64,000 nt of DNA from Squalus acanthias (lineage: Eukaryota). Location: contig CM059432.1 of assembly GCA_030390025.1 (NCBI GenBank), positions 29,142,001-29,206,000 on the forward strand, in the 5' to 3' direction. Numbering within the stretch: the stretch's first letter is position 1; the number at the start of each line of letters is the position of its first letter. The translations under genes were made by a program, and so were the position numbers. Shown one piece after another: positions 10,223-61,619 of the stretch. Under the pieces are notes generated by a model. That model saw nothing but the letters and a program-made list of their open reading frames with translations. It had not been told where the DNA came from and made no database searches.

Positions 10223-11945
10223 TGTAAGGGATTCCTGACCCTGCGTGTCTCGTGGCCTGTGAGATTCACGCGGCTCTGTGCAGCCTGTATGTCAGTGCGG
10301 GTCTAGGCCTTGCTGCCTGTTCTGGTCTCCAGCCAGTCTGGGAACACTAGACACACCTGTGAGTGGTTCGAATCACTCTCCCTTACGGTTCTAGACACTG
10401 GACTTAGATGCGAGAGCAGTAATGGAGATAAAACTCATGTAGACTTGGTTTGAATGGTACGAAATGGAAAATCTTTATTGCATGATACTTAAAATTATGA
10501 AATACATGTCATAAGCACAGATTAATGACAGTACAATCTTACAAACAGTTATGTAGTCGATCTTAGGGAAACGAGGAACGAACGGCACAAAGTAAATAGG
10601 GGCACACATTACAAATATCCTGAATCCTTAAACCCTCCCCTATCAATATCTATCCTAAACTAGATTCGTAGGATCTCGAGACTCATGCTCACCACTCGTG
10701 ATAACTCGGAGAAATTCCGAATAGCTGATCGGATGTTTTTCACCGCAGCACCCACGTGTCGGTCAGGAGATCTCCTGGTCCCACTTGTTTACTTGCTTCT
10801 GCTGCTCCGGCTAGCAGGCTGGACCGTCTGCTGTGATGAAGACCTGTGTTGGTTGGCTTAACAGGTACTCTTCGAACACAGTTGTCAATATCGTCGATAC
10901 GATATGTTTTCACGTTCCAGTTACTTTGGGCACAGTCCAGTTATCATCGATGCAATATGTTTCGTTGCAAGTTCAAAAGAGAAATCTTCCTGGCGAGGAA
11001 AACTTGGCTAATCGACCTACAGGCGCAGTCGGGATTTACTGACCGTGGCGATGGATATGGTCTTCCTCTCTTCTCATCTCATCTCATCTCATCTCATCTC
11101 ATCTCGGGCCTTCGGTTCCGCTGCCAGTTACCAACATAGGTCTTCGTTACGCGACACGAGGTAGATCCGAACGGATCAGAAAATGCAACAGTCTTTTCAG
11201 AAGAGGCAACAGGCAAGCAGAAGCCCAACTACGAGTACACAGGAGCAGCCACGAGGTTACGAATCGACCGGATAAAAGCACAGGAGCCAGCGAGCAAGAG
11301 CAAGAGCGAGAGAGTGAATGGGCGGTTTGGAGCCTGCAATTATAGTGCAAAATCTTCCGTTTCCCGCCCAACTATAATGTCCATTCTTTTGTTTAGGGTT
11401 TGGCGCCCAAATGTCTTGTATGGGTGATCTCCGTTCTTAATGGGTTTCGGGGCTACTCGTAAATGTCTGAGTACCTGTTAATATTTCTCCCATTGTTAAA
11501 TCGGTCGGTGTTCTCCCTGGAGGGGTTTGGGGCTTCCAAGTGTCCTGTATAACTACCTGCTAACGGCTCTCTCATCGTAGAGTCGTTGGGATTTTACATA
11601 TTAATGTCTTTTGGATGGGCCCTTGATTACTCGGTACAAAGGCTTTCCTTTGTACCTGGGAGACCGATTCCAGTATCTATGTTTATACTGCAAACCCATA
11701 ATGTCTCGTGTATTATCTTCACTGTGCTGAATCTTAATCGATCTTGCACAAATGTTTATTGGAACGCCATCTTGTCTGCCTGTTGAAGAGTCTAGAATGT
11801 TCTGTCACGAGGTGCGGCGGCCATTTTACAGGCTGCTTGTGTCCACTTTAAACCTGCCAGCATTCTGCTGAAAATAAAAGCTGTTTGAACGAAACTCTGT
11901 GTTTTCTCCTTATTAACAAAATCGCGATATATTGCGAATTCTACA
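10223..11945 (-). repeat. 3' LTR of the provirus
   Basis: Direct repeat of 17962-19684 (offset 7739); minus-strand AATAAA at 10474-10479; (ATCTC)n microsatellite at about 11072-11105. Confidence 0.97.
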
Positions 11946-12395: not shown

Positions 12396-14747
12396 TCACA
12401 CGGTGCTTTCATCGTGCACGCGCACGTAACGTTCTCGCCACTCTCCCGTGTTTTCATGCTTGGTGAGGCGCTTGTCTCTTTTACAATGTACGACCAATAG
12501 GTACACTACAATGAAAACTTGGCATACGACTAAAATGTGGGAGGCTATTCTGATCCATGAAGGCACTTCAATATTAGTGAACAGATTCCACCACGGTGGA
12601 ACTACTATATCCAGAATGTCTGTTCCTATTTCGACAGTTTTCTGCTCTAATGTGTAAAAGTGTTTCTGTGACACCGCGACGGCTTTTAAAAGCTTGGTGA
12701 GGTGTTCAGGGAGAGGGGGAATGAGGTATCCAAAATGCGCGACGAATCGCTGCAAGTCGGTGAAATTCTCTTTTACCGTGAGATGAACAGTGGATGGTTC
12801 AGGGATTGGGATAATTCGCTGTTGTGCTACTTGAACTTCCGCCCTGGGTTTAAAACAGAAACTGCTGTCACTCACCGGACACCGGCTACGGTTTCCATGC
12901 TGGTAGTGTTGCGCTGCAGTGGTAACACAATATGTTCCACCCCCGATGTATGCTACCTGCGGAGGCACATGATCTTGTGCCATTGCCTCCATGGTGCAAT
13001 TCATGGACTTGGCGCCAGCCGTTCTGAACCCGCACTGTGGTGTTAAAAAGGCATTCAAGTGCTGGGGGCACAGTATTATGTGTGCTCCCCTGCCACGACA
13101 ACCAGAGAGATCTGTACCTGTCATCGTTTGCTCCCAGCGGATGACGTAAGGTGGAACCGCTGCATAACGAATGTGGGCTCCCCCCTGAATGACACCAATG
13201 TTCTCTACCCGATATACCGGGGCGGGCTTTGCTGTGTCGCCCAAAACCGGCATGCGTAAAACTATACCCATAATGGTATGGTTTGATCGTCCGCAGTCCA
13301 CGGGGACTGGGTATGCTTCTGAAGCTAGCCTGAGCTGGCACGGGCTCAATGCGTTCTGAAAAGGGTGGAGCGCCCGTAGGTGTTTGTTACTTATCCAGGA
13401 CGGAACCAAACCTTGTTTTAAATCCTCCAAATTACTGCGGCCCTCGCCCAGTAACCACGCCCCGTAAAGCACGCACACCTCGTTCTGCGCAGCTTGATCG
13501 GATGCATTCCGATCTTCCCTAATCAGGGCATTTACCGTCTTTGCATGTTTCTCCAACTCTGCTATAATTTCCTTTAAATGGAGGGTCATGGCTTGGTCCT
13601 CGTGTAGACCTGACCCTACCACTTTATTCTCATCTGTTAGAATGTCTTTTAATTGCGTTTTTAGACCATTAATCTGGGTCTGCAGCTCCACACTGTCTAG
13701 AGCGTTGACCACGGATGTACCCGTGTTAAAAGCAGTGAACGCATCGTTCACCAAACCCCTTCTTTGCCTCCCTACTTGATCCAAAACTTCCTGTGGTGCG
13801 GTGTACAAACTTGTTTTATCAATTTCCGCGAAATCGAATTCGTAAAATTGCCTGAACATCTTGGTCAACAGGACCTGGTACAACTGTTCCGTCTTTTTGG
13901 GGCACCACTCTGGTAACCGCACCTCAGTGAGATTTAAAATCACCGAGGCCACCGCGTAATGTACCCCCTGAAATAGTATCTGGTCTGTGGGGACCAGTAC
14001 CAAACCATTCCCGGGTCCCTTACTAGTTTTAGGGCACCCTTCTTCCTCAGCTAGAACCACCGGAATCGTGGGCGGGGCTTTGCGTGGGCGCGTAATGAGC
14101 TCAGTGGCATTTACTGGGATCGGGGAGAATGGGGCTCCGCACCCCCTGGTGCTCGCATCCCACCTCATTCCCTGTCCGTTATCCTGCCATTGATTGATAA
14201 AAAATATGGAGATGCCTTTGGGGCAAACGTACTTTGACCCCCACATACATACATAAATTCCCTCATCCGGTTCCCACCATTTGTCCCAACAGACTTTCAC
14301 TTGTCCGTCTGTCCCCGTAATTGTCCGATGGGTATTATTACCCAGTCGTTCCCACTCGACCGAAGAGTTTCTCATAGTTTTGCTCAGCTTTCGCAGCCAC
14401 CACCATCGGCTCAATGGGACCTTCCCACTACAAGTCAAACAAATCCGTTTGCCGACGGTGACGCTGATCCTGGGTGCGATGATCCTTACTTTGGGGCACA
14501 GTAAAGAAGTCTCTTGGTAGGCAAACCCCGACGTGCTGGAATACTCCGTTGAGTTCGTTCCCAGCCATCCTGGCCACCTTCCCTTGTGGAAATAGGTGCT
14601 GGTCTCCTCTGCCTCCCGTCTTCCGGTCCCATCCACCGCGATGGGGGCCGTGTCCCCGGAACATCCAAACACCACGACATCCTTGGTGCGGCCTCGATAG
14701 GCCAATCCACATCCGATTGCCACGAGCAATACTAGAATTCGTTCCAT
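12396..14747 (-). CDS. env: Envelope glycoprotein, class I fusion protein of F-like type, 783 aa from MERILVLL
   Basis: Signal peptide MERILVLLVAIGCGLA; furin site RQRR/GLV (13758-13769); heptad region; Cys-rich segment; TM ILVVCQVFIVVYLLVV; many N-x-S/T sites; ORF uninterrupted. Confidence 0.88.
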   Translation of the reverse strand: MERILVLLVAIGCGLAYRGRTKDVVVFGCSGDTAPIAVDGTGRREAEETSTYFHKGRWPGWLGTNSTEYSSTSGFAYQETSLLCPKVRIIAPRISVTVGKRICLTCSGKVPLSRWWWLRKLSKTMRNSSVEWERLGNNTHRTITGTDGQVKVCWDKWWEPDEGIYVCMWGSKYVCPKGISIFFINQWQDNGQGMRWDASTRGCGAPFSPIPVNATELITRPRKAPPTIPVVLAEEEGCPKTSKGPGNGLVLVPTDQILFQGVHYAVASVILNLTEVRLPEWCPKKTEQLYQVLLTKMFRQFYEFDFAEIDKTSLYTAPQEVLDQVGRQRRGLVNDAFTAFNTGTSVVNALDSVELQTQINGLKTQLKDILTDENKVVGSGLHEDQAMTLHLKEIIAELEKHAKTVNALIREDRNASDQAAQNEVCVLYGAWLLGEGRSNLEDLKQGLVPSWISNKHLRALHPFQNALSPCQLRLASEAYPVPVDCGRSNHTIMGIVLRMPVLGDTAKPAPVYRVENIGVIQGGAHIRYAAVPPYVIRWEQTMTGTDLSGCRGRGAHIILCPQHLNAFLTPQCGFRTAGAKSMNCTMEAMAQDHVPPQVAYIGGGTYCVTTAAQHYQHGNRSRCPVSDSSFCFKPRAEVQVAQQRIIPIPEPSTVHLTVKENFTDLQRFVAHFGYLIPPLPEHLTKLLKAVAVSQKHFYTLEQKTVEIGTDILDIVVPPWWNLFTNIEVPSWIRIASHILVVCQVFIVVYLLVVHCKRDKRLTKHENTGEWRERYVRVHDESTV

Positions 14748-14760
14748 CCTTCCTTGGTTC

Positions 14761-14780
14761 CTGTGATCAGATAAAATGAG
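14761..14780 (-). promoter_or_regulatory. Candidate env splice acceptor
   Basis: Minus strand CTCATTTTATCTGATCACAG|G, 13 nt upstream of the env ATG. Confidence 0.6.
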
Positions 14781-14924
14781 GTAGCCAGCCTCGCAAGAGT
14801 CTCTGGCTTTTGTGAAGGGTGAGCGGGTCCCCTGACCTCGCCTCACGTAAACTTCAACGTTCGCTGAATAAACTTCAACTAAACCTATCTTTAAAGCTCC
14901 CATCATTTTATCGCTTTCTGTTAA

Positions 14925-15035: not shown

Positions 15036-16145
15036 TTAAATTCTGAGAAGGCTGCTGCGAGCTCTTCCCGACGGTGGGAGGGCACTGACCCTTCCCTCTG
15101 ATCTGCCGCAGCCTGTTACTGCTGCGATGTGGCCGGTCTGTACCCGGGTTATCTTAACCTGAATTTTACGCCTTGGGGCAGTCTGGGGACATGACCACAT
15201 CCTCCTGGGCTGGGGTTCTCTACTTGACCTACGGGGAGTTGCTATGGGCGGGGGTTCCGTGACGGACGGACCGGGTTCCGAGACTTCCATCGGGATGACC
15301 TGGGGTTCCATCACAGTCGCCGGCTCCGCCTCCGCTGACTCCGCCTCCCTAACCTCGGGGCTGGCAGTTCGTGGCTCCGCCCTGCTCGGCCCAGCAGGCG
15401 GGCCTTCACTCGTGATCTCTGCCTCCCCTGAGGACTGGACGTTCAAAGCGGGCGGCCACATCTCTGGGAGCCACACCGGTACTCTCTGTGCTCCTATAGC
15501 GGCTGGCCCTGCCTCCTCTAGCTCCTCCCTCCTGTCCTCGGGACCTGCAGCTTGTGTGTCCACCCTGTGTGGATCTCTACCTACAGCCCCCATTCCCTCC
15601 AGACCGTTCCTCAGGAACCACCCGTCATCATCACTATGCTCATCTGCACTATCCTCATCTGACCAGGGTACCCTGAGTTCTTCCTCATCTAACCCCCAAT
15701 TCCAGAAAAACGCTGCATGATCGTCCGGGATGTCCCTTCCCCTGATGCAAGCTGCTATGCCTGCCTGTGTGCCTTGTGGTCCTACCTGGGGCTGTGCTTT
15801 CCCATTGGCGGGATTTACCCCTGTAGTTTTCCCCTGCGCACCTGGCTGGTACAGTTTGCATTGGTTTACATCCTCATACTCCCGGCTTTTGGCTACCCTG
15901 TAGGCTGCTTTTATCTCTCTAAGCTGCTCTTCTAGCCTGAGCACGTCTAACTTTCCCATTGATCGGGCGTTCTCCTCCCGCAGGGCCTGCTCTCTAAGCT
16001 GCCCTTCCAGCCCATCTATTTTCCCTATTAAGCGGGCGTTCTCCTCCCGCAAGGCCTGCTCTTTTAACCTGGCCTCCTCACCGCAGACCCCCTCCTGTGC
16101 GTGTCTTTTAAAAGGACACAGGTAGGCAGGCTGCGTGGGCTCTAG
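15036..16145 (-). CDS. ORF-X: unknown protein (coiled-coil, acidic, then Pro/Glu-rich), 369 codons, in frame with gag
   Basis: Open from the codon after the gag TGA (LEPTQPAYLCPF...) to TAA at 15036-15038; no protease, RT, RNase H or integrase motifs seen. Confidence 0.7.
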   Translation of the reverse strand, partial: LEPTQPAYLCPFKRHAQEGVCGEEARLKEQALREENARLIGKIDGLEGQLREQALREENARSMGKLDVLRLEEQLREIKAAYRVAKSREYEDVNQCKLYQPGAQGKTTGVNPANGKAQPQVGPQGTQAGIAACIRGRDIPDDHAAFFWNWGLDEEELRVPWSDEDSADEHSDDDGWFLRNGLEGMGAVGRDPHRVDTQAAGPEDRREELEEAGPAAIGAQRVPVWLPEMWPPALNVQSSGEAEITSEGPPAGPSRAEPRTASPEVREAESAEAEPATVMEPQVIPMEVSEPGPSVTEPPPIATPRRSSREPQPRRMWSCPQTAPRRKIQVKITRVQTGHIAAVTGCGRSEGRVSALPPSGRARSSLLRI

Positions 16146-17957
16146 TCATTGGGTACTATTAGACGGTCCTGCGGCACCTACGGGGCCGGTTGCGACCGCC
16201 ACCTGTCCACGCGCATTCAAGACCAGCTTGCGCATGGCTCCTAACACTGCTTCGAGGTCGTCGGGAGGGGTGGGTGCCTTGGCTTCCTTAGCCGGGACAG
16301 GCGCCTGGGCTCGGACCGCGGGATTTTTATCCTTGGAATCCTTCCAAGGGTTCCTGCAATGCTTGCGCCAGTGCCCTGTCTTCCCACACCCGTAACAAGC
16401 ATTACTTGCCTGTGGGGCGCGATTACCCTCCTGATGCCACTCTCTTTGATACGGGGCTGCGGGTCGTACCTCATGTACTCTTCCCTTAAGGGGACGTGTT
16501 GCCATACCCCTTATATTGCGATAACCTAACGTGAGTCGATTCAAGACCGACTCTTCCGTAATGTTGGGGTCATTGGGATCAAACCATGCTTTTGCCTGCT
16601 CTCTAACGGCTGGTAAACTGTTGGCTATTATGCACCTAAGCCAATGAGTTAAAGTTAAACCTTCCACATCTTCGCGCTCGGGCGCACCTAGACAGCTGCG
16701 CTCATATACTGGCCACAGCCTGTCGGCAAAAACCTTCGGGGGTTCTCCCTCCATCTGCACTGTCTGTCCCACTCTAGCAAACGGACCTTCATCGTTCGCC
16801 CCCAACACTTCCAGGACCTCGTTCTTTAATTCCTCATAACTCTTGGTTCCCCTCTTGCTCTCGCCTGAGAGACACTGAAGGACCGAGCTGTCTAATGAGA
16901 ACAGCAGCATTTTTGCTGTCTCCCCATCATCGCAGCCGTTAATGGCTGCGGCTTGCTCAACTTCTCTGAAATGTACGGAAGGGTCGTCTATCTCGGTCAG
17001 CTTCCGTACGTGATTTATCATAGCTCTCAGCTGATGTGAACTGTGAGGCAACACCAGCTGTCCGAGGAGATCCCCCGGTTCTTCCCCACCGTTTCTGCTT
17101 GGGCCCCTTTTAATACCCGTTACTGGATACAACGATCCCTTTTCTACTTCCTTTTCAATGGGCTCTTTTGTTTCTTCCATTGCTTCCTCCCTAACCCAGG
17201 TTTCTGAATAGCTGGGTGGCGCGGAGGGCGCAGTGGCTACTACTTCTTCTGCTTTACTTGGTGGGGATTTTCTAAATCTCTCATTTACTAGCGGCTGGTG
17301 CGCCGACGGATTGATAAGGCACACCATGCCGTTCGCATTGTTCACGGCCTTTTTGAGGTGCTCTATCTCCCTTTGGCAGGCGCTATGATCGGCTCCCTGA
17401 AACTTATCCTCAAGGGCCAACTTATATGCCGCCCTAACCCCCATCAAGCTTTCTTCTTGAGTTCTTATCTGGGCAGCTTGGCGGTTACATCTTTCCTTTA
17501 ACCTGCTCTCATTCAATTTTGCCTCAGTGACCTGGCACTCGAGATAATCTATCCTTGTTTTAAGGTGACTGGAGACTTCCTGGCTTTCTTGGTGTAACTC
17601 ATTTAAATTCTTAATGAGCACCTCCCCTCCAGAAACCTTCTCCTCCATTTCTCCCTCTAAATGACTGATTCGAGCTACTAGCGCTGTAATGGTCTGGTTG
17701 GAAATCTGAACCTGCCTTTTGTAACACATAAGCCAGACTGCTTTCTCCAGTGTCTTCCTATGTTCTTTACTTTCTGTCCACCTTTCAGCTGCCTCCAATG
17801 GGCTCTTATCCGCTAACAATTCACTTATCCATTTCTTAGTTAGATTAACCTTTCCAAACACATAATCCGCTATCTTTTCCTGCATAACATTTCGTACAGT
17901 CATTCCAAAATCTAACACACTACCCTCTCGCTGCCAGTGTCCTGCCGCGGTCGCCAT
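16146..17957 (-). CDS. gag: Gag polyprotein, 603 aa from MATAAGHW
   Basis: N-terminal coiled-coil; PSAPPSY late motifs (17208-17228); capsid-like middle region; zinc knuckle CYGCGKTGHWRKHC (16356-16397); ATG in strong context AAAATGG. Confidence 0.9.
   Translation of the reverse strand: MATAAGHWQREGSVLDFGMTVRNVMQEKIADYVFGKVNLTKKWISELLADKSPLEAAERWTESKEHRKTLEKAVWLMCYKRQVQISNQTITALVARISHLEGEMEEKVSGGEVLIKNLNELHQESQEVSSHLKTRIDYLECQVTEAKLNESRLKERCNRQAAQIRTQEESLMGVRAAYKLALEDKFQGADHSACQREIEHLKKAVNNANGMVCLINPSAHQPLVNERFRKSPPSKAEEVVATAPSAPPSYSETWVREEAMEETKEPIEKEVEKGSLYPVTGIKRGPSRNGGEEPGDLLGQLVLPHSSHQLRAMINHVRKLTEIDDPSVHFREVEQAAAINGCDDGETAKMLLFSLDSSVLQCLSGESKRGTKSYEELKNEVLEVLGANDEGPFARVGQTVQMEGEPPKVFADRLWPVYERSCLGAPEREDVEGLTLTHWLRCIIANSLPAVREQAKAWFDPNDPNITEESVLNRLTLGYRNIRGMATRPLKGRVHEVRPAAPYQREWHQEGNRAPQASNACYGCGKTGHWRKHCRNPWKDSKDKNPAVRAQAPVPAKEAKAPTPPDDLEAVLGAMRKLVLNARGQVAVATGPVGAAGPSNSTQ
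17939..17956 (-). promoter_or_regulatory. Primer-binding site, tRNA-Arg(TCG)
   Basis: TGGCGACCGCGGCAGGAC, 5 nt after the 5' LTR; complementary to the vertebrate tRNA-Arg(TCG) 3' end GTCCTGCCGCGGTCG-CCA (recalled from the human sequence). Confidence 0.88.
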
Positions 17958-17961
17958 TTTC

Positions 17962-19684
17962 TGTAAGGGATTCCTGACCCTGCGTGTCTCGTGGCCTGTG
18001 AGATTCACGCGGCTCTGTGCAGCCTGTATGTCAGTGCGGGTCTAGGCCTTGCTGCCTGTTCTGGTCTCCAGCCAGTCTGGGAACACTAGACACACCTGTG
18101 AGTGGTTCGAATCACTCTCCCTTACGGTTCTAGACACTGGACTTAGATGCAAGAGCAGTAATGGAGATAAAACTCATGTAGACTTGGTTTGAATGGTACG
18201 AAATGGAAAATCTTTATTGCATGATACTTAAAATTATGAAATACATGTCATAAGCACAGATTAATGACAGTACAATCTTACAAACAGTTATGTAGTCGAT
18301 CTTAGGGAAACGAGGAACGAACGGCACAAAGTAAATAGGGGCACACATTACAAATATCCTGAATCCTTAAACCCTCCCCTATCAATATCTATCCTAAACT
18401 AGATTCGTAGGATCTCGAGACTCATGCTCACCACTCGTGATAACTCGGAGAAATTCCGAATAGCTGATCGGATGTTTTTCACCGCAGCACCCACGTGTCG
18501 GTCAGGAGATCTCCTGGTCCCACTTGTTTACTTGCTTCTGCTGCTCCGGCTAGCAGGCTGGACCGTCTGCTGTGATGAAGACCTGTGTTGGTTGGCTTAA
18601 CAGGTACTCTTCGAACACAGTTGTCAATATCGTCGATACGATATGTTTTCACGTTCCAGTTACTTTGGGCACAGTCCAGTTATCATCGATGCAATATGTT
18701 TCGTTGCAAGTTCAAAAGAGAAATCTTCCTGGCGAGGAAAACTTGGCTAATCGACCTACAGGCGCGGTCGGGATTTACTGACCGTGGCGATGGATATGGT
18801 CTTCCTCTCTTCTCATCTCATCTCATCTCATCTCATCTCATCTCGGGCCTTCGGTTCCGCTGCCAGTTACCAACATAGGTCTTCGTTACGCGACACGAGG
18901 TAGATCCGAACGGATCAGAAAATGCAACAGTCTTTTCAGAAGAGGCAACAGGCAAGCAGAAGCCCAACTACGAGTACACAGGAGCAGCCACGAGGTTACG
19001 AATCGACCGGATAAAAGCACAGGAGCCAGCGAGCAAGAGCAAGAGCGAGAGAGTGAATGGGCGGTTTGGAGCCTGCAATTATAGTGCAAAATCTTCCGTT
19101 TCCCGCCCAACTATAATGTCCATTCTTTTGTTTAGGGTTTGGCGCCCAAATGTCTTGTATGGGTGATCTCCGTTCTTAATGGGTTTCGGGGCTAATCGTA
19201 AATGTCTGAGTACCTGTTAATATTTCTCCCATTGTTAAATCGGTCGGTGTTCTCCCTGGAGGGGTTTGGGGCTTCCAAGTGTCCTGTATAACTACCTGCT
19301 AACGGCTCTCTCATCGTAGAGTCGTTGGGATTTTACATATTAATGTCTTTTGGATGGGCCCTTGATTACTCGGTACAAAGGCTTTCCTTTGTACCTGGGA
19401 GACCGATTCCAGTATCTATGTTTATACTGCAAACCCATAATGTCTCGTGTATTATCTTCACTGTGCTGAATCTTAATCGATCTTGCACAAATGTTTATTG
19501 GAACGCCATCTTGTCTGCCTGTTGAAGAGTCTAGAATGTTCTGTCACGAGGTGCGGCGGCCATTTTACAGGCTGCTTGTGTCCACTTTAAACCTGCCAGC
19601 ATTCTGCTGAAAATAAAAGCTGTTTGAACGAAACTCTGTGTTTTCTCCTTATTAACAAAATCGCGATATATTGCGAATTCTACA
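17962..19684 (-). repeat. 5' LTR of the provirus
   Basis: Direct repeat of 10223-11945; candidate minus-strand promoter GGGCGG, CGGAAG, TATAAT at about 19078-19108. Confidence 0.97.
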
Positions 19685-35919: not shown

Positions 35920-37680
35920 AAAATTCATTCATGGGATGTGGGCTTCGCTGGCAAGGCTGGCATTTATTGCCCATCCCTTCTTGCCCTTGAGAAAGTGGTG
36001 GTGAGCCGCCTTCTTGAACCGCTGCAGTCCGTGTGGTGAGGGTACTCTGTTAGGGAGGGAGGGAGTTCCAGGATTTTGACCCAGCGACGATAAAAGAACG
36101 GCGATATACTTCCAAGTCAGGATGGTGTGTGACTTGGAGGGGAACTTGGAGGTGGTGGTATTCCCATGCGCCTGCTGCCCTTGTCTTTCTAGGTGGAAGA
36201 GGTCGCGGGTTTGGGATGTGCTGCCGAAGAAGCCTTGGCAAGTTGCTGCAGTGCATCTTGTAGATGGTACACACTGCAGCCATGGTACGCCGGTGGTAGA
36301 GGAAGTGAATGTTTACGGTGGTTAATGGGATATCAATTAAGCGGGCTGCTTTGTCCTGGATGGTGTCGAGCTTCATGAGTGTTGTTGGAGCTGCACTCAC
36401 CCAGGCAAGTGGAGAGTATTCCATCACACTCCGTCAGGACCACTCAGTACCAGACCTCATTACAGCCTTGGTCCAAACATGGACAAAGGAGCTGAATTCC
36501 AGAGGTGAGGTGAGAGTGACTGCCCTTGACATCAAGGCAGAATTTGACCGAGTGTGGCATCAAGGAGCCCTAGTAAAACTGAAGTCAATGGGAATCGGGG
36601 GTGGGGGGGGAACTCTCCACTGGCTGGAGTCATACCTAGCACAAAAGAAGATGGTTGTGCTTGTTGGAAGTCAATCATCTCAGCCCCATGACATCGCTGC
36701 AGGATTTCTTCAGGGCAGTGTCCGAGGCCCAACCATCTTCAGCTGCTTCATCAATGACCTTCCCTCCAACACAAGGTCAGAAATGGGAATGTTCGCTGAT
36801 GATTGCACAGTGTTCAGTGCCTTTCTCAACTCCTCAGATAATGAAGCAGTCCATGCCCGCATGCAACAAGACCTGGACAACATTCAGGCTTCAGCTGATA
36901 AGTGGCAGGTAACATTGGTGACACAGAAGTGTCAGGCAATGACCATCTCCAACAAGAGAGAGTCTAATCACCTCCCATTGACATTCAATGGCATTACCAT
37001 CATTGAATCCCCCACCATCAACATCCTGGGGCTCACCATTGACTATAAGCTTAACTGGACCAGCCACATAAATACTGTGGCTACAAGAGCAACTCAGAGG
37101 CTGGGTATTCTGTGGCGAATGACTCATCTCCTGACTCCCCAAAGCCTTTTCACCACCTATAAGGCACAAGTCAGGGGTGTGATGGAATTCTCTTCACTTG
37201 CCTGGATGAGTGCAGCTCCAACAACACTCAAGAAGCTTGACAAAGCAGCCCACTTGATCGGCACCCCATGCACCACCTTAAACATTCATTCCCTCTACCA
37301 CCAGTTCAAAGTGGCTGCAGTGTGTACCATCTACAAGATGCACTGCAGCAACTCGCCAAGGTTTCCTCGACAGCACCTCCAAACCCGCCACCTCTACATA
37401 GAAGGACAAGGGCAGCAGGTGCCTGAGAACACCACCACCTCCAAGTTCCCCTCCAAGTCACACACCATCCTGACTTGGAAATATATCGCCGTTCCTTCAT
37501 TGTCGCTGGGTCAAAATCCTGGAACTCCCTCCCTAACAGCATTGTGGGAGTACCTTCACCACACAGACTGCAGCGGTTCAAGAAGGCGGCTCACCACCAC
37601 CTTCTCAAGGGCAATTTGGGATGGGCAATAAATGCTGGCCCTGCCAGTGATGCCCACATCCCGTGAGTGAATAAATTAAA
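35920..37680. mobile_element. Two LINE family B pieces fused head-to-head: 35920-36431(-) and 36432-37680(+)
   Basis: Both pieces carry the same 3' tail in opposite orientation; chimeric ORF 36309..37631 with MFADD. Confidence 0.85.
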
Positions 37681-48379: not shown

Positions 48380-51170
48380 CAAATCTAAAGGCACTATATC
48401 TGAATGCATGAAGCATTCGTAATAAGGTAGACGAATTAACAGCACAAATAGATGTAAACGGATATGATATAATTGCAATTACGGAGACATGGCTGCAGGG
48501 TGACCAAGGCTGGGAGCTGAATATCCAAGGATATTTGATATTTAGGAAGGACAGGTGAAAAGGAAAAGGAGGTGGGGTGGCCTTGTTAGTAAAGGATGAA
48601 ATCAGAGCAATAGTGAGAAAGGATATTGGCTCAGAAAATCAAGATGTAGAATCAGTCTGGGTGGAACTAAGAAGCACCAAGTGGCAGAAAACATTAGTGG
48701 GAGTTGTCTACAGGCCTCCAAACAGTAGTGGTAATGTAGGGGATGGCATCAAACAGGAAATTAGAGATGCATGTAACAAGGGTACTACAGTAATCATGGG
48801 TGACTTTAATCTACATATAGATTGGCCAAACCAAATTAGCAATAATACTGTGGAGGGTGAATTCCTGGAGTGTGTATGAGATAGTTTTTTAGACCAGTAT
48901 GTTGAGGAGCCAACTAGGGAACAGGCTATCCTAGATTGGGTATTGTGCAATGAGAAGGGGTTAAGTAATAATCTTGTTGTGCGGGGTCCTTTAGGGAAGA
49001 GTGACCATAACATGATAGAATTCTTCATTAAAATGGAAAGTGAAGAAGCCCAATCCGAAACTAGGGTCCTAAATCTAAACAAAGGAAACTACGATGGTAT
49101 GAGGAGTGAGTTGGCTATGATAGATTGGGGAGCTTCATTAAAAGGCATGACAGTGGAATGAATGCATGAATTGCAACAGTTATAGATTCCTTTCTGGCAC
49201 AAGAACACAAAAGGAAAAGTGGCCCAACCATAGCTAACAAAAGAAATTAAGGATAGTATTAGATCCAAAGAGGAGTCATATAAAGTTGCCAGTAAAAGTA
49301 GCAAGCCTGAGGATTGGGAGCAGTTTAGAGTTCAGCAAAAAAGGACCAAGAGATTGATTAAGAGGGGAAAAATAGAGTATGAGAGTAAACTTGCAAGGAA
49401 CATAAAAGCGGATTGTAAAAGCTTCTACAAGTATGTAAATAGAAAAAGATTAGTGAAGACAAATGTAGGTCCCTTACAGTCAGAAATGGGAGAATTTATA
49501 ATGGAGAACAAAAAAATGGCTGAGCAATTAAACAAATACTTTGGTTCTGTCTTCACGGAAGAGGACACAAATAACTTCCCAGAAATGCTAGGGAACCAAG
49601 GGTCTAGTGAGAAGGAGGAATTAAAGGAAATTAGTATGAGTAAAAAAATAGTGCTGGAGAAATTAATGGGACTGAAAGCTGATAAATCCTCAGGGCCTGA
49701 TAATCTGCATCCCAGAGTACTAAAAGAGGTAGCCATGGAAATAGTGGATGCATTGGTTGTCATCTTCCAAAATTCTATAGATTATGGAACAGTTCCTGCA
49801 GATTGGAGGGTGGCAAATGTAATCCCACTATTTAAAAAAGGAGGGCAAGAGAAAACAGGGAACTATCGACCGGTTAGCCTAACATCAATAGTAGGAAAAA
49901 TGCTAGAGTCTATTATAAAGGATGTGATAACAGGACACTTAGAAAATATCAACGGGATTAGACAAAGTCAACATGGATTTATGAAAGGGAAATCGTGTTT
50001 GACAACCCTACTGGAGTTTTTTGAGGATGTAACTGGTAGAATAGATAAGGGAGAACCAGTGGATGTGGTGTATTTGGATTTTCAGAAGGCCTTTGATAAA
50101 GTCCCACATAAGAGGTTAGTGTGCAAAATTAAAGCACATGGGATTGGGGGTAATATACTGGCATGGATTGAAAATTGGTTAACAGACAGGAAACAGAGAG
50201 TAGGAATAAATGGGTCTTTTTCGGGGTGGCAGGCGGTGACTAGTGGGGTACCACAGGGATCAGTGCTTGGGTCCCAGCTATTCACAATATATATCAATGA
50301 TTTGGATGAGGGAACCAAATGTAGTATTTTCAAGTTTGCCGACGACACGAAACTAGGTGGGATTGTGAGTTGTGAGGAGGATGCAAAGAGGCTTCAAGGC
50401 GATTTAGACAAGTTGAGTGAGTGGGCAAATACATGGCAGAAGCAGTATAACGTGGATAAATTTGAAGTTATCCACTTCGGTAGGAAAAACAGAAAGCTAG
50501 AGTATTATTTAAATGGTGATAGATTGGGATATGCTGATATACAAAGGGACCTGGGTGTCCTTGTACACCAGTCACTGAAAGCAAACACGCAGGTGCAGCA
50601 AGCAGTTAGGAAGGCAAATGGTATGTTGGCCTTTATTGCAAGAGGATTTGAGAACAGGAGCAAGGATGTCTTACTACAGTTGTACAGGGCCTTGGTGAGA
50701 CCACACCTGGAGTACTGTGTGCAGTTTTGGTCTCCTTACCTAAGAAAGGATATACTTGCCATAGAGGGAGTGCAGCGAAGGTTCACCAGACTGATTCCTG
50801 GGATGGCAGGACTGTCGTATGAGGAGAGATTGGGTCGACTAGGCCTGTATTCACTAGAGTTTAGAAGAAGAGAGGGGATCTCATTGAAATGTATAAAATT
50901 CTGACAGGGCTAGACAGACTGGATGCAGAGAGGATGTTTCCCCTGGCTGGGGGGTTGAGAACGAGGTGTCACAGTCTCAGGATACGGGGTAGGACATTTA
51001 GGACTGAGATGAAGAGAAATTTCTTCACTCAGAGGGTGGTGAACCTTTGGAATTCTCTACCACAGAAGGCTGTGGAGGCCAAGTCACTGAATATATTTAA
51101 GAAGGAGATAGATAGATTTCTAGACACAAAAGGCATCAAGGGGTATGGGGAGAGAGTGGGAAGATAGTAT
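48380..51170 (+). pseudogene. CR1 ORF2 (APE endonuclease and reverse transcriptase), with stops and frameshifts; 516-aa open RT stretch at 49354..50904
   Basis: [33 protein letters not shown] and FADD motifs. Confidence 0.92.
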
Positions 51171-60286: not shown

Positions 60287-61619
60287 GGGCTAGAAATTTG
60301 GGGCGGTAACTGTTGAAATTTTGAAAAATTAGCGCCAGGCACTAATGATGGTTAGGTTTCAGTAAATTGGCTGTTAGTGCTCCAGGAAAGACCTGGAGTG
60401 CTAAATCAAGCGCTAATGACCTCAGTAGGGTGCTACAGGGGCGCTACCAGCAGAGCGATAAGGTATTACAGGTGCATTACAATCGGTAATGATCGTTCAC
60501 AGTGGTTCCTTCCAGCTCTTAAAGGGGAGGTTGCATCATTGTGCAGATGCTCATTATCATCAGCATTGCTGGCTGTGAAGGCGACCTGCAACCAACTCAA
60601 TGCCCTGATCGTATTGGCTGCTCCCACTCCCAGGCAGAGAGCTCGTCATTTCATGGAGGAGGCATTGGTCGCGGGAGTGGAGCGAAGGAGGGTAGTGCTG
60701 TTCCCGACCACTGGAAGGAGGCTATTGCCCCAGGTCTTCAGGGCAATGTGGAGGGAAGTGGCCCAGGAGGTCTCGGCCAGTAGTGTGGTCGTACGCAGCC
60801 TGACACAGTGCCAGAAGAAACTTACTCGGGTGGTCAGGGTGAGTACATGCTTCAACAGGTCCTACATACCAGCATCTGAACCTCAGTCTGTACACGCTGC
60901 ACAAAGCACCACACCGCCACCTCTCACCCACCAAGCATCTGCACCTAATCAAACTCACATTCACATCTCATGCCTTTTCTACAATTACAGCTTTTCAACT
61001 ATGGCACGCATATCTCCCAAACACAAAGCTGGACTCTGACTCACACACATTCATTTCTCTTGCAGGCAAAGATGGCCCACAATAGGAGGGAGCAGCAGAG
61101 AACAGGCGGGGTGATGCGCAGCTCCAGCAGCTTTCAGACCTGGAGGAGCAAGTGATGAGAGTCATTGGGCAGCAGGTGGTGGGCGTCGTGGCCGTCGGCG
61201 ATGTTGACCCCCTTGGCGGCAACAACGGTATGGTCATCCCCTCTCCTTCTCTCATTCCACTTCCCCCTCACACCACAATCCTTTCTCACTTTCCAGCTCT
61301 TGATAATGTCTGCATTCCTTGCTCCATTCCTGCCCCCCTGTCCTCACCTTAACATGAGTCTTGTGCCTTTATGCTTTCAGAGAATCAGCAACCAGATGAC
61401 CAGCCTGTCCCGGAGCCTCCCAGTGAGAGTGAGGCGGGAGAAGAGGAGGAGGAAGAATGCACCGCGTCACTGCATATCTCACCTGCAGGCACCACCTCAG
61501 ATACTGGCAATACCCGATGTTTAGAGGCAAGTTTAGTAGAGGGGTCTGCACTGGGTGATGCACCAGGGATCAGCGGGCTGCAGCAAGGCCAAGGAAAAAG
61601 GGTAGCTCAGGAGCCAGCT
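60287..61619 (+). mobile_element. PIF/Harbinger transposon left part with a decayed multi-exon Myb/SANT-like gene
   Basis: TIR GGGCTAGAAATT resembles the 29298 element; translation ALVAGVERRRVVLF...WREVAQEVSA...RSLTQCQKK; GT-AG introns; next exon AKMAHNRREQQRTGG. Confidence 0.75.

Follow-up and report, generated by a model that had tools for sequence, protein, structure and literature searches.

The textbook case of a fusion machine that needs a separate attachment protein is the F protein of paramyxovirus type; in paramyxoviruses, attachment resides on a separate HN, H or G protein. An endogenous retrovirus of Squalus acanthias raises the question of whether an Env with the fold of F can carry such a part within its own chain, and from where that part was acquired. 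The element lies in a stretch of 64,000 nucleotides (contig CM059432.1, positions 29,142,001 to 29,206,000; hereafter the window), for which an earlier note based on the letters alone had proposed a captured host immunoglobulin (Ig) domain in the N-terminal part of Env, acting as a receptor-binding module or an immune mimic. The reading that we favour on balance is that of a real but divergent IgSF-type (V/I-like) domain, which would form the core of an extension of ~225 residues on an F-fold Env and would serve in receptor binding. Such an Env, in which F2 is preceded by an Ig-like domain, would illustrate how attachment and fusion can be combined in a single chain, and would offer a practical way into the question of which receptors the F-type Envs of deep-branching retroviruses use. 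The earlier note knew of no account of such a domain in these Envs, and our literature searches likewise turned up no description of it.

The env gene occupies a minus-strand open frame of 836 codons (14906..12396), which translates into 836 aa and along which residues are numbered here unless model or Env residues are specified (Table 1). Its probable start, Met54 at window position 14747, is directly followed by a hydrophobic, signal-like stretch, and the homologous Met is the start point in the aligned Env relatives. The conserved region between the signal peptide and the Ig-like domain contains the motifs GCSG and GRWPGWLG-NST-YSS; its pLDDT is under 50 in both AlphaFold (AF2) models and its fold is not predicted. 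The linker behind the Ig-like domain, with the Pro-rich stretch that had been pointed out before, is the least conserved segment (42-67% identity, compared with 54-75% for the Ig part). Downstream of the F2-like region, the F1-like subunit leads from the candidate fusion peptide GLVNDAFTAFNTGTSVVNAL through a long HRA helix and beta-rich head domains to the HRB helix, the transmembrane segment and a short tail.

Table 1. Positions of the proviral features and of the parts of Env in the window.
Feature	Position	Strand	Remarks and basis
5' LTR	17962..19684	-	1723 bp, TG...CA; direct repeat of 10223-11945
Primer-binding-site-like TGGCGACCGCGGCAGG	17941..17956	-	5 nt past 5' LTR; overlaps first ATG of gag ORF
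gag ORF, 603 aa	16146..17957	-	One CCHC zinc knuckle (zf-CCHC weak, E 0.29); N-terminal half coiled-coil-rich
pol remnant	15036..16145	-	In frame with gag, behind gag stop codon
env, F-type class I fusion glycoprotein (by predicted fold)	12396..14747	-	783 aa from Met54; frame opens at 14906
Probable signal peptide MERILVLLVAIGCGLAYRG	14691..14747	-	Sequence; relatives begin at homologous Met
Conserved pre-Ig region, ORF residues 73-135	14502..14690	-	Invariant alignment columns
Predicted Ig-like V/I-type domain, ORF residues 141-235 = Env residues 88-182	14202..14486	-	Motifs, profiles, models
Linker with Pro-rich stretch TRPRKAPPTIP (residues 270-280)	14037..14201	-	Sequence; pLDDT 23-34
F2-like region, ORF residues 291-383	13758..14036	-	Ends in predicted furin-type site RQRR (380-383); pLDDT 88-95
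F1-like subunit	12399..13757	-	Sequence, AF2 model, structure searches
Transmembrane helix, ORF residues 785-808	12483-12554	-	Inside F1-like subunit
3' LTR	10223..11945	-	Direct repeat of 5' LTR

Structure searches with the predicted model show that the remainder of the Env has the fold of paramyxo- and pneumovirus F proteins. Foldseek found 238 matches at E<=1e-3, among them hPIV3 F (1ztm) at E 8.6e-10, and the best 38 of these, which are the ones listed, are all paramyxo- or pneumovirus F proteins. VIA aligned 325 residues (model residues 245-649 with F residues 26-431) at Z 12.8, with 220 of 995 chains at Z>=8. The modelled core (pLDDT 80-95) comprises the head domains, HRA, HRB and the C-terminal transmembrane helix and thus shares the fold of the F2/F1 heads, HRA, HRB and transmembrane segment with the F proteins of hPIV3, RSV (3rki) and Langya virus (8tve). 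Common to both is also a furin-type site before a hydrophobic segment, represented here by the predicted basic cleavage site RQRR and the candidate fusion peptide behind it. In contrast to those F proteins, which are encoded by negative-strand RNA viruses, the present Env is encoded by a retrovirus; the two share only about 10-14% sequence identity, and the Env has ~225 extra N-terminal residues. No match to PF00523 (Fusion_gly) was obtained for the Env (E<=1) or for 15 of its relatives (E<=0.1), and the family is absent among the 25 of 55 families listed for the 47 members of the Env alignment. Furthermore, a profile of 15 Env relatives retrieved no F chain from the PDB at E<=10 and matched HA2 coiled coils weakly (E 0.15-0.6), while the whole Env gave chance-level matches only (E about 2) when compared with the PDB by sequence. 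The Env therefore shares the fold of F without belonging to its sequence family. One of the 47 members matched Baculo_F (E 0.0011), which was not found again among 27 members re-scanned at E<=0.005.

The structural alignment also delimits the extension. It begins at model residue 243-245, that is ORF residue 296-298, facing F residues 26-38, and this start (~Env residue 298 in ORF numbering) coincides with the mature N-terminus of F2. Since the alignment starts only there, the Ig-like domain belongs to a ~225-residue extension that is absent from those F proteins and unmatched in the alignment. The Ig segment does have the placement given in the earlier note, behind the signal peptide and ahead of the F2-like region; that note had also remarked that F proteins normally lack an attachment domain of their own. 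Distant Env relatives, too, align solely from query residue ~274-290 onward.

Within this extension, the strings on which the Ig proposal had been built are all present: ISVTVGKRICLTC at residues 147-159, WWW at 168-170 and DEGIYVC at 214-220. The span given for them (14240-14490) fits residues 141-222, which correspond to window positions 14241-14486. Exactly 60 residues separate the canonical cysteines Cys159 and Cys220, a predicted disulfide whose spacing falls within the ~55-75 residues between the B and F strand cysteines of IgSF domains; the extra cysteines exist as well (Cys156, Cys206 and Cys228). A Trp of strand C is expected ~10-15 residues past the first Cys and is found in Trp168-170, with Trp170 aligned to the Trp of CRTAM, and DEGIYVC provides the D-x-G-x-Y-x-C motif that leads into strand F. 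Eight of these positions (C156, C159, W170, C206, G216, Y218, C220 and C228) are invariant in all five aligned relatives, which are 52-74% identical to the window. Moreover, the Ig segment is more conserved than its flanks and contains two N-glycosylation sequons, at 180 and 190.

Profile searches point weakly to an Ig fold. Pfam family Ig_3 matched the domain, but every Ig-clan model of Pfam stayed below its gathering score (8.9-17 bits, compared with 30). Such sub-threshold matches occur in 4 of the 47 Env alignment members (best E 0.0027), and Ig_3 is the sole domain family, among the families listed, to be matched by more than one of them. An 82-aa piece gave E 0.022, and the homologous place in the relative P0010 gave E 0.0085. 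When a profile of five relatives was compared with the PDB, the best match was the IgV domain of CRTAM (E 0.0044 and 0.0076, profile positions 19-111) at only 20 bits, and IgSF chains account for eight of the ten matches at E<=10. The CRTAM alignment covers the whole domain and keeps the register, with VTEGKRVCLTC facing VEEGQTLTLKC and DEGIYVC facing DEGVYKC. In the ESM Atlas, the neighbours of residues 125-245 are Ig-family clusters with scores of 0.88-0.90, and one clan is common to nine of the ten best family-bearing matches.

The AlphaFold models are all-beta across the domain and match V-type Ig structures, but their pLDDT is weak and the last strand is inconsistent. The mean pLDDT of the N-terminal model is 39.9, and in the full-length model the Ig region reaches 44-77 per ten-residue block (61-77 for the strands), from an alignment that offered only 5-9 informative sequences for this region. 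The last strand (residues 178-189) was modelled in the former and is absent from the latter. With the N-terminal model as query, none of the PDB matches of Foldseek reached E<=1e-3; the matches listed (E 2e-3 to 5e-3) are almost all V-type chains of antibodies, TCR, CD8, NITR and VNAR, in a database so overloaded with antibody chains that Ig matches are favoured for any small beta-sandwich. VIA-align against 48,161 representative chains gave Z 6.0-6.9 for 84-95 aligned residues (model residues 83-182), with an rmsd of 2.5-3.3 A; VIA carries its own warning that a Z below 8 is frequently reached by unrelated models. Among the 50 VIA matches listed are MPZ, CD79b, CD147 Ig0, neuroplastin, obscurin Ig59 and CD8, the remainder being mostly antibody and TCR chains. 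The IgV domains that match best by profile or structure (CRTAM 4h5s/3rbg, CD8, MPZ and CD79b) are 12-22% identical to the Env domain, which differs from them in its extra cysteines (156, 206 and 228), in its WWW run and in sitting in a viral fusion glycoprotein. Several weak lines of evidence thus agree on an Ig V/I-type beta-sandwich with IgSF hallmarks in the N-terminal part of Env, which we predict with low-to-moderate confidence and which upholds this part of the earlier proposal.

What could such a domain do on an F-type core? In class I fusogens, the parts that bind the receptor precede the cleavage site. In gammaretroviral SU, the receptor-binding domain is an N-terminal beta-sandwich of Ig topology, which is followed by a proline-rich linker, lies upstream of a class I cleavage site and sets receptor choice; it is not known to bear the sequence signature of the IgSF, and its fusion subunit is a gamma-type TM instead of an F-type core. 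The present Env likewise has a predicted N-terminal Ig-like sandwich and a Pro-rich linker ahead of its predicted cleavage site. Its Ig-like domain is probably the built-in receptor-binding part. The Env precursor would enter the ER via the signal peptide starting at Met54, trimerise and then be cut at RQRR383. Cleavage would yield an SU-like subunit, composed of the pre-Ig region, the Ig-like domain, the Pro-rich linker and the F2-like strands, on a membrane-anchored F1-like subunit. The Ig-like domain, on its flexible linker, may then bind a cell-surface molecule and supply attachment and triggering in cis, the role of the separate HN, H or G protein in paramyxoviruses, and membrane fusion would be driven by refolding of HRA and HRB. 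In the full-length model, the pLDDT of the linker is too low to place the Ig-like domain relative to the F head.

A genuine Ig-like domain might instead have a structural or regulatory role, either shielding the F head as a cap with glycans or holding the prefusion state as a clamp, with receptor binding residing in the pre-Ig region (73-135) or in the F head itself. This agrees with the invariant motifs of the pre-Ig region, which is conserved as well, and with the two sequons inside the Ig domain. Furthermore, the relatives P0038, which is without any N-terminal module, and P0047, which aligns from its own residue 17, both retain the fusion core, so that this core can exist without the module. 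The F protein of pneumoviruses can itself bring about attachment, with no domain added, and an F-type fusogen is therefore not strictly in need of one. However, replacement of the N-terminus from lineage to lineage on a conserved core would be the pattern expected of receptor-binding parts, and we regard a purely structural or regulatory domain as unlikely.

The origin of the domain was sought in cellular proteins. HMMER, run exhaustively against 1.84 billion representatives, retrieved 50 proteins, every one of which matched through an Env-derived part; no cellular IgSF domain was among them, and the search for the nearest host IgSF relative that the earlier note had suggested gave no donor. 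Proteins that carry the names of Rhinoraja, Pristiophorus and Rhincodon have homologous N-termini, and in these skate, sawshark and whale-shark copies the Ig-like domain is 51-75% identical over the aligned part. Its conservation is about equal to that of the F2-like region, and both diverge in step. Judged by this conservation, the Ig-like domain is an old, fixed part of the cartilaginous-fish Env lineage, and the idea of a host domain captured recently is not supported. Given the lack of a cellular match and the conservation across skate, sawshark and whale shark, any capture must have been ancient and its donor is untraceable.

Recent capture of a host IgSF exon, whose product would be an immune mimic or a decoy (engaging, for instance, the ligand of a CRTAM- or nectin-like receptor) and would not serve in entry, would account for the retained cellular IgSF signature of Cys, Trp and D-x-G-x-Y-x-C, which virus-born beta-sandwiches, to our knowledge, usually lack. 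CRTAM, an immune adhesion receptor, is moreover the protein whose V domain gives the top profile match. A BFVD search with the N-terminal model returned nothing at E<=1e-3; its weak matches, herpesvirus gC among them, include Ig-like immune modulators of poxviruses and herpesviruses at E 3e-3 to 4e-2. Against this stand the 20 bits of the CRTAM match, the absence of cellular proteins from the 50 matches and the shared domain that diverges in step with the F2-like region. That the domain shares one reading frame with the fusion machinery and precedes the cleavage site argues in the same direction, and we consider a recently acquired decoy quite improbable. Equally improbable is that the segment is no Ig domain but a beta-, Cys- and Trp-rich stretch of glycoprotein with a motif arisen by chance and searches drawn to the antibody chains of the PDB: every sequence match is sub-threshold, the models are of low confidence with VIA Z under 8 and no Foldseek match at E<=1e-3, and a WWW run with extra cysteines is unusual among IgSF domains, but independent methods (Pfam, the PDB profile, language-model features and two structure searches) return the same fold and register, the top profile matches are not antibodies and keep the register of Cys, Trp and DxGxYxC throughout the domain, and the hallmarks are invariant in relatives.

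An old Ig-like receptor-binding domain, the reading that we prefer, can be compared with the N-termini of other Env lineages. Our survey of related Envs revealed two further lineages with Ig-like N-termini of their own, which cannot be aligned to the domain in the window. For the bamboo-shark protein P0013, labelled 'Ig-like domain-containing' in UniRef, the 47 PDB matches at E<=1 (best E 0.0054) are mainly antibody VH with some butyrophilins. P0034 matches Pfam V-set at E 0.003, and its N-terminus reached only E 0.4-0.7 against the PDB. Comparison of the skate-clade Ig profile with the N-termini of P0013, P0019 and P0034 by hhalign gave probabilities of 3.0, 1.9 and 0.4%, and the N-termini of the skate/shark clade, P0013 and P0034 show no detectable mutual similarity (hhalign probability 3% or less). 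P0012 and P0023, from Mustelus and Pristiophorus, have another type of N-terminus, which is rich in Cys. Two frog N-termini (P0019 and P0048) gave no Ig match in Pfam (E<=10) or, as a two-sequence profile, in the PDB; their ESM Atlas neighbours are Ig clusters at only 0.83-0.84, and a tentative Ig-like pattern is seen by eye. Because the N-termini differ by lineage, from CRTAM-like in the skate/shark clade through those of P0013, P0034 and the Cys-rich pair to none in P0038, we tentatively suggest, as a possibility short of an even chance, that the F-type retroviral Envs of sharks, rays and amphibians are modular, with an F core and an exchangeable N-terminal receptor module onto which IgSF domains of hosts were grafted more than once. 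If so, nature would have provided in these Envs a series of F proteins that need no partner and whose targets were changed by exchange of a domain.

Among the closest known counterparts of the Env is that of lokiretroviruses, which the main text of Wang and Han (2020, PMC7947760) describes as related to paramyxo- and pneumovirus F and not to classical retroviral Env. Like the Env described there, the present one has a predicted signal peptide, basic cleavage site, fusion peptide, coiled coil and transmembrane segment and belongs to gag-pol-env LTR elements; moreover, lokiretroviruses are reported from frogs, and the present Env has frog relatives too. The lokiretrovirus Env shows sequence similarity to PF00523 (E 2.2e-7 in PMC7947760), whereas the relationship of the present Env to the F proteins of Mononegavirales is one of predicted fold and not of sequence. 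The words 'immunoglobulin', 'cartilaginous' and 'shark' do not occur in the main text of PMC7947760, and our data extend F-type retroviral Envs to cartilaginous fishes, hosts absent from that text.

The provirus itself is flanked on both sides by a 4-bp ATAT, and its LTRs show three mismatches in 50-nt windows. About 3.6 kb of pol is missing relative to the sister copy L023 of the same genome; what is left of pol is its first ~10 codons and its last ~260, with 245 bp of unrelated filler (15869-16113) in between. The gag DNA is 98% identical to that of L023, in which gag is followed in the same frame by a 1507-aa pol with PR, RT, a tether RNase H-like domain, RNase H and integrase, and which thus has the LTR-flanked gag-pol-env order and the PR, RT, tether, RNase H and IN domains of lokiretroviruses. 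The RT of lokiretroviruses is placed as the sister of all remaining retroviruses; the pol of L023 matches the RTs of Ty3 (E 1.6e-71), gammaretroviruses (1.7e-69) and foamy viruses (1.9e-63) about equally well. The family comprises over a thousand copies, very many of them near-identical, with near-identical LTRs and intact gag-pol-env copies. The element is a pol-deleted copy of a very young gag-pol-env family that most resembles the lokiretroviruses. Since the family is very young and has intact copies, its Env can be studied from natural, undamaged sequence and not from decayed fossils. A search of the same genome with the pol-like N-terminus of another Env alignment member (P0017) returned only generic pol pieces of many elements. 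Four sequencing runs, all of them contigs and so silent on transcription, showed no splice-like joint ahead of env. BHIKHARI (Bik-1/Bik-2), described in the text of PMC12067270 as non-autonomous endogenous lokiretroviruses of zebrafish with neither pol nor env, has in common with the present element that it is young and multi-copy, has lost pol and still encodes an intact Gag of ~600 aa, with a coiled coil at its N-terminus. Unlike BHIKHARI as presented there, the Squalus element has kept a full env, and its pol-bearing sister copies are abundant in the same genome.

The Env encoded in the window, in which an earlier note had recognised an immunoglobulin-like domain ahead of an F-type fusion protein, is read from an open frame at 14906..12396 on the minus strand (836 aa counted from the first ATG). 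Since MERILVLLVAIGCGLAYRG directly follows Met54 (window 14747) and the relatives start at the homologous Met, the protein most likely comprises 783 aa, the length that had been proposed. All motifs quoted for the domain and its linker are found in the ORF, exactly 60 residues lie between the canonical Cys159 and Cys220 as had been claimed, and the location at 14240-14490 is consistent with residues 141-222 (window 14241-14486). Additional cysteines of the Ig region are at residues 156, 206 and 228.

Features of the Env and of the provirus that carries it (ORF numbering unless stated; model residue + 53 = ORF residue)
Feature	Position	Strand	Remark
LTRs, 1723 bp	window 19684-17962 and 11945-10223	minus	three mismatches seen; TG...CA ends
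PBS-like TGGCGACCGCGGCAGG	directly behind 5' LTR, window 17941-17957 region	minus	sequence
Pre-Ig region	residues 73-135, window 14502-14690	minus	conserved; without predicted fold
Ig-like domain	residues 141-235	minus	part of N-terminal extension
ISVTVGKRICLTC	residues 147-159	minus	Env ORF sequence
WWW	residues 168-170	minus	Env ORF sequence
DEGIYVC	residues 214-220	minus	Env ORF sequence
Pro-rich linker	residues 236-290	minus	poorly conserved
TRPRKAPPTIP	residues 270-280	minus	Env ORF sequence
Furin-type RQRR	residues 380-383	minus	ahead of hydrophobic segment
Long helix	model residues 383-444		C-terminal of hydrophobic segment
Second helix	model residues 679-711		full-length model
TM	residues 785-808	minus	Env sequence

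Residues 141-235 very probably adopt an Ig-like fold; although each test alone is indecisive, the independent tests agree. The Pfam family Ig_3 was matched by the whole Env ORF (E 0.51), by an 82-aa piece of the Ig region (E 0.022) and at the equivalent place in the Env relative P0010 (E 0.0085). These matches each span profile positions ~5-74 of 78, but all lie far under the 30-bit gathering score. In the Env alignment, four of 47 members matched Ig_3 (best E 0.0027) and one further member matched V-set (P0034, E 0.003); no other domain family was matched in more than one. A profile of the Ig region from five relatives (52-74% identical to the window) was compared with 177,635 distinct PDB sequences; its best match was the CRTAM IgV domain (E 0.0044 and 0.0076), aligned over profile positions 19-111 so that B-strand Cys, Trp and DxGxYxC all fall in register. 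IgSF chains made up eight of the ten matches at E<=10 (CRTAM twice, DIP-eta, VEGFR1, a nanobody, CD8 alpha and neurotrimin twice), the remaining two being ARFGAP1 and USP36. Furthermore, the nearest neighbours of residues 125-245 in language-model features were Ig-family clusters (0.88-0.90, graded by the tool as a lead only). Residues C156, C159, W170, C206, G216, Y218, C220 and C228 are unchanged in all five relatives, and conservation is 74, 75, 61, 67 and 54% in the Ig segment and 65, 67, 42, 51 and 46% in the linker C-terminal to it, a pattern which looks like that of a folded domain under constraint.

In the AlphaFold models the Ig region is all-beta, with low to moderate confidence and, in the full-length model, without the last strand. 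AlphaFold2 gave a poor model for residues 54-300 from nine sequences (mean pLDDT 39.9; 45-58 per ten-residue block in the Ig domain), with beta structure throughout model residues 93-206, and the full-length model from 47 sequences has pLDDT 61-77 in most Ig-domain strands. With the N-terminal model, Foldseek returned no matches at E<=1e-3; the matches it listed, with E 2e-3 to 5e-3 and a target-normalised TM of about 0.3-0.5, were nearly all V-type chains belonging to antibody, TCR, CD8, NITR or VNAR entries. VIA-align of the Ig region (model residues 83-182, ORF 136-235) against 48,161 representative chains gave Z 6.0-6.9 over 84-95 residues (rmsd 2.5-3.3 A); the tool warns that Z under 8 is common. 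The PDB also holds a disproportionate number of antibody chains. Non-antibody Ig domains among the 50 matches listed included those of MPZ, CD79b, CD147 (Ig0), neuroplastin and obscurin (Ig59).

The remainder of the Env is modelled with confidence as a paramyxo-/pneumovirus F fold (pLDDT 80-95 at model residues ~240-650). Foldseek placed hPIV3 F (1ztm) first (E 8.6e-10), followed by the F proteins of RSV, Langya, PIV5, Nipah, Hendra, NDV, hMPV and mumps, with 238 matches at E<=1e-3, and VIA aligned 325 residues to 1ztm_B (Z 12.8, rmsd 7.7 A), 220 of 995 chains having Z>=8. The link to F is at the level of fold and unseen in sequence: Pfam scans gave no match to PF00523 for the Env (E<=1) or for 15 relatives (E<=0.1), and a 15-sequence Env profile found no F chains in the PDB at E<=10. 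Pfam Baculo_F (baculovirus F protein) was matched in one of the 47 aligned Env relatives (E 0.0011). Because the F alignments begin at model residues 243-245 (ORF 296-298), facing F residues 23-38, the mature N-terminus of F2, the protein N-terminal of about residue 297, signal peptide included, is on the model an extension that paramyxo- and pneumovirus F proteins lack, made up of the pre-Ig region, the Ig-like domain and the Pro-rich linker. The pre-Ig region has invariant GCSG and G-NS-YSS motifs and matched no family; it may form a second functional element of the extension.

The earlier note had interpreted the domain as captured from a host. An exhaustive HMMER search of the whole ORF against 1.84 billion representative proteins returned 50 proteins at E<=1e-3, all matching the Env-derived part, with some gene models joining a piece of Env to host exons; no cellular IgSF domain was among them, so the nearest host relative that was to be sought did not emerge. 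The Ig region is substantially covered in six of the 50 (P0002, P0005, P0003, P0010, P0017 and P0026). Since homologous N-termini occur in copies from Rhinoraja longicauda, Pristiophorus japonicus and Rhincodon typus, the domain has belonged to the Env since before these copies split, and its divergence parallels that of the F2-like region. Retention of the IgSF signature is an argument that the domain ultimately derives from a cellular Ig domain, in what would be an old event with an untraceable donor. Several public gene models fuse Env pieces to other exons, namely nine C2H2 zinc fingers (Pristiophorus P0003), cadherin repeats (P0011), an F-box (P0040), pol fragments (Rhincodon P0017) and RNase H (P0025), and are probably annotation chimeras. 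The close relative P0002 (Rhinoraja longicauda, 516 aa) matches in two stretches and is an internally deleted Env without head domains, since its HRA region (...IIAEL) is joined to the part that precedes HRB (DFTDLQRF...).

In more distant relatives, the survey of related envs revealed different N-termini. These proteins, including Mustelus P0012, Chiloscyllium P0013, the frog proteins Pelodytes P0019 and Mantella P0048, P0034 and P0038, align by HMMER only from query residue ~274-290 onward, and their N-termini are mutually different. That of P0013, which automatic UniRef naming already marks as 'Ig-like domain-containing protein', matched antibody VH chains for the most part, with some butyrophilins, in the PDB (47 at E<=1, best E 0.0054). 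An Ig pattern is visible by eye in P0019 and P0048, for which Pfam and PDB searches found no Ig support; P0012 and P0023 carry another kind of N-terminus, rich in Cys, and P0038 has no N-terminal module. By hhalign, the skate-clade profile showed no similarity to the modules of P0013, P0019 and P0034 (probability 3% or less). The modules either stem from one ancestor and have lost all recognisable similarity, or were acquired repeatedly.

The best-supported reading of its function is that the Ig-like domain would bind the receptor as part of an SU-like subunit formed by Ig and F2, held by the flexible Pro-rich linker in cis with the F-type fusion machine. We infer this because the domain lies upstream of the cleavage site, is absent from F proteins using a separate attachment protein, and belongs to a module that varies by lineage on a conserved core. 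The F-type Env of deep-branching retroviruses is already known. In line with the earlier note, full-text literature searches covering main texts found no Ig-like domain described on such an Env: none appeared in a term search of the main text of the lokiretrovirus paper (PMC7947760), in the eLife/bioRxiv paper on envelope-carrying retrotransposons or the 2026 structural review of ERVs, or in the anamniote Env-diversity preprint, which treats gamma-type Env only.

The env sits in a minus-strand LTR element flanked on either side by 4-bp ATAT. Its LTRs enclose, in this order, a gag of 603 aa with a single zinc knuckle, a frame of 369 codons and env; no pol domain was found between them. Because the PBS-like sequence overlaps the gag ORF at its first ATG, the true Gag start may lie further downstream. 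In L023, a pol-bearing sister copy in the same genome, a 1507-aa pol lies behind gag in the same frame, with protease, RT, RNase H-like tether, RNase H and integrase; its best solved relatives are the RT of Ty3, gammaretrovirus and foamy virus and the integrase of foamy virus. Compared with L023, the window copy lacks 3.6 kb of pol and has 245 bp of unrelated sequence (15869-16113) instead, the affected region being window 15036-16145 (minus) and L023 434-4957. Despite this loss, the 369-codon frame, in phase with gag, is uninterrupted between the stop codon of gag and the natural stop of pol. A duplication of ~40 bp relative to L023 at window 15082-15122 is a length polymorphism among copies, since contigs from all four runs compared have the 'goes back 38' joint there.

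The window copy is a pol-deleted member of a very young and very abundant family: across the 3.7-Gb genome, 1,257 places carry the junction typical of pol-bearing copies (0 for a control pattern), and all 54 scored env matches, of 14,021 first-look candidates, are ~100% identical and stop-free. Env copies are often paired (seven pairs among the 54 places, 7.70-7.76 kb apart, which equals one LTR plus the pol-deleted interior), and pol-bearing junctions are also spaced about 11.0-11.1 kb, as at 53589284 and 53600331 of C14; these spacings suggest that LTR-interior-LTR-interior-LTR tandem arrays are frequent. The family most resembles the lokiretroviruses (PMC7947760), a group that is defined by RT phylogeny, and BHIKHARI, non-autonomous zebrafish relatives of that group (PMC12067270); the likeness lies in gene order, dual RNase H, coiled-coil Gag and F-type Env. 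Sequencing runs under five different organism labels contain contigs that match the element at 95% identity or more, and close relatives of the retrovirus seem to be shared by several species labels. Three plus-strand ORFs elsewhere in the window (36309-37631, 49486-50904 and 60416-61039) belong to other mobile elements and are unrelated to Env; two have a reverse-transcriptase domain (RVT_1, E 2.8e-20 and 2.3e-29) and one has a weak Myb/SANT-like match (E 7e-4).
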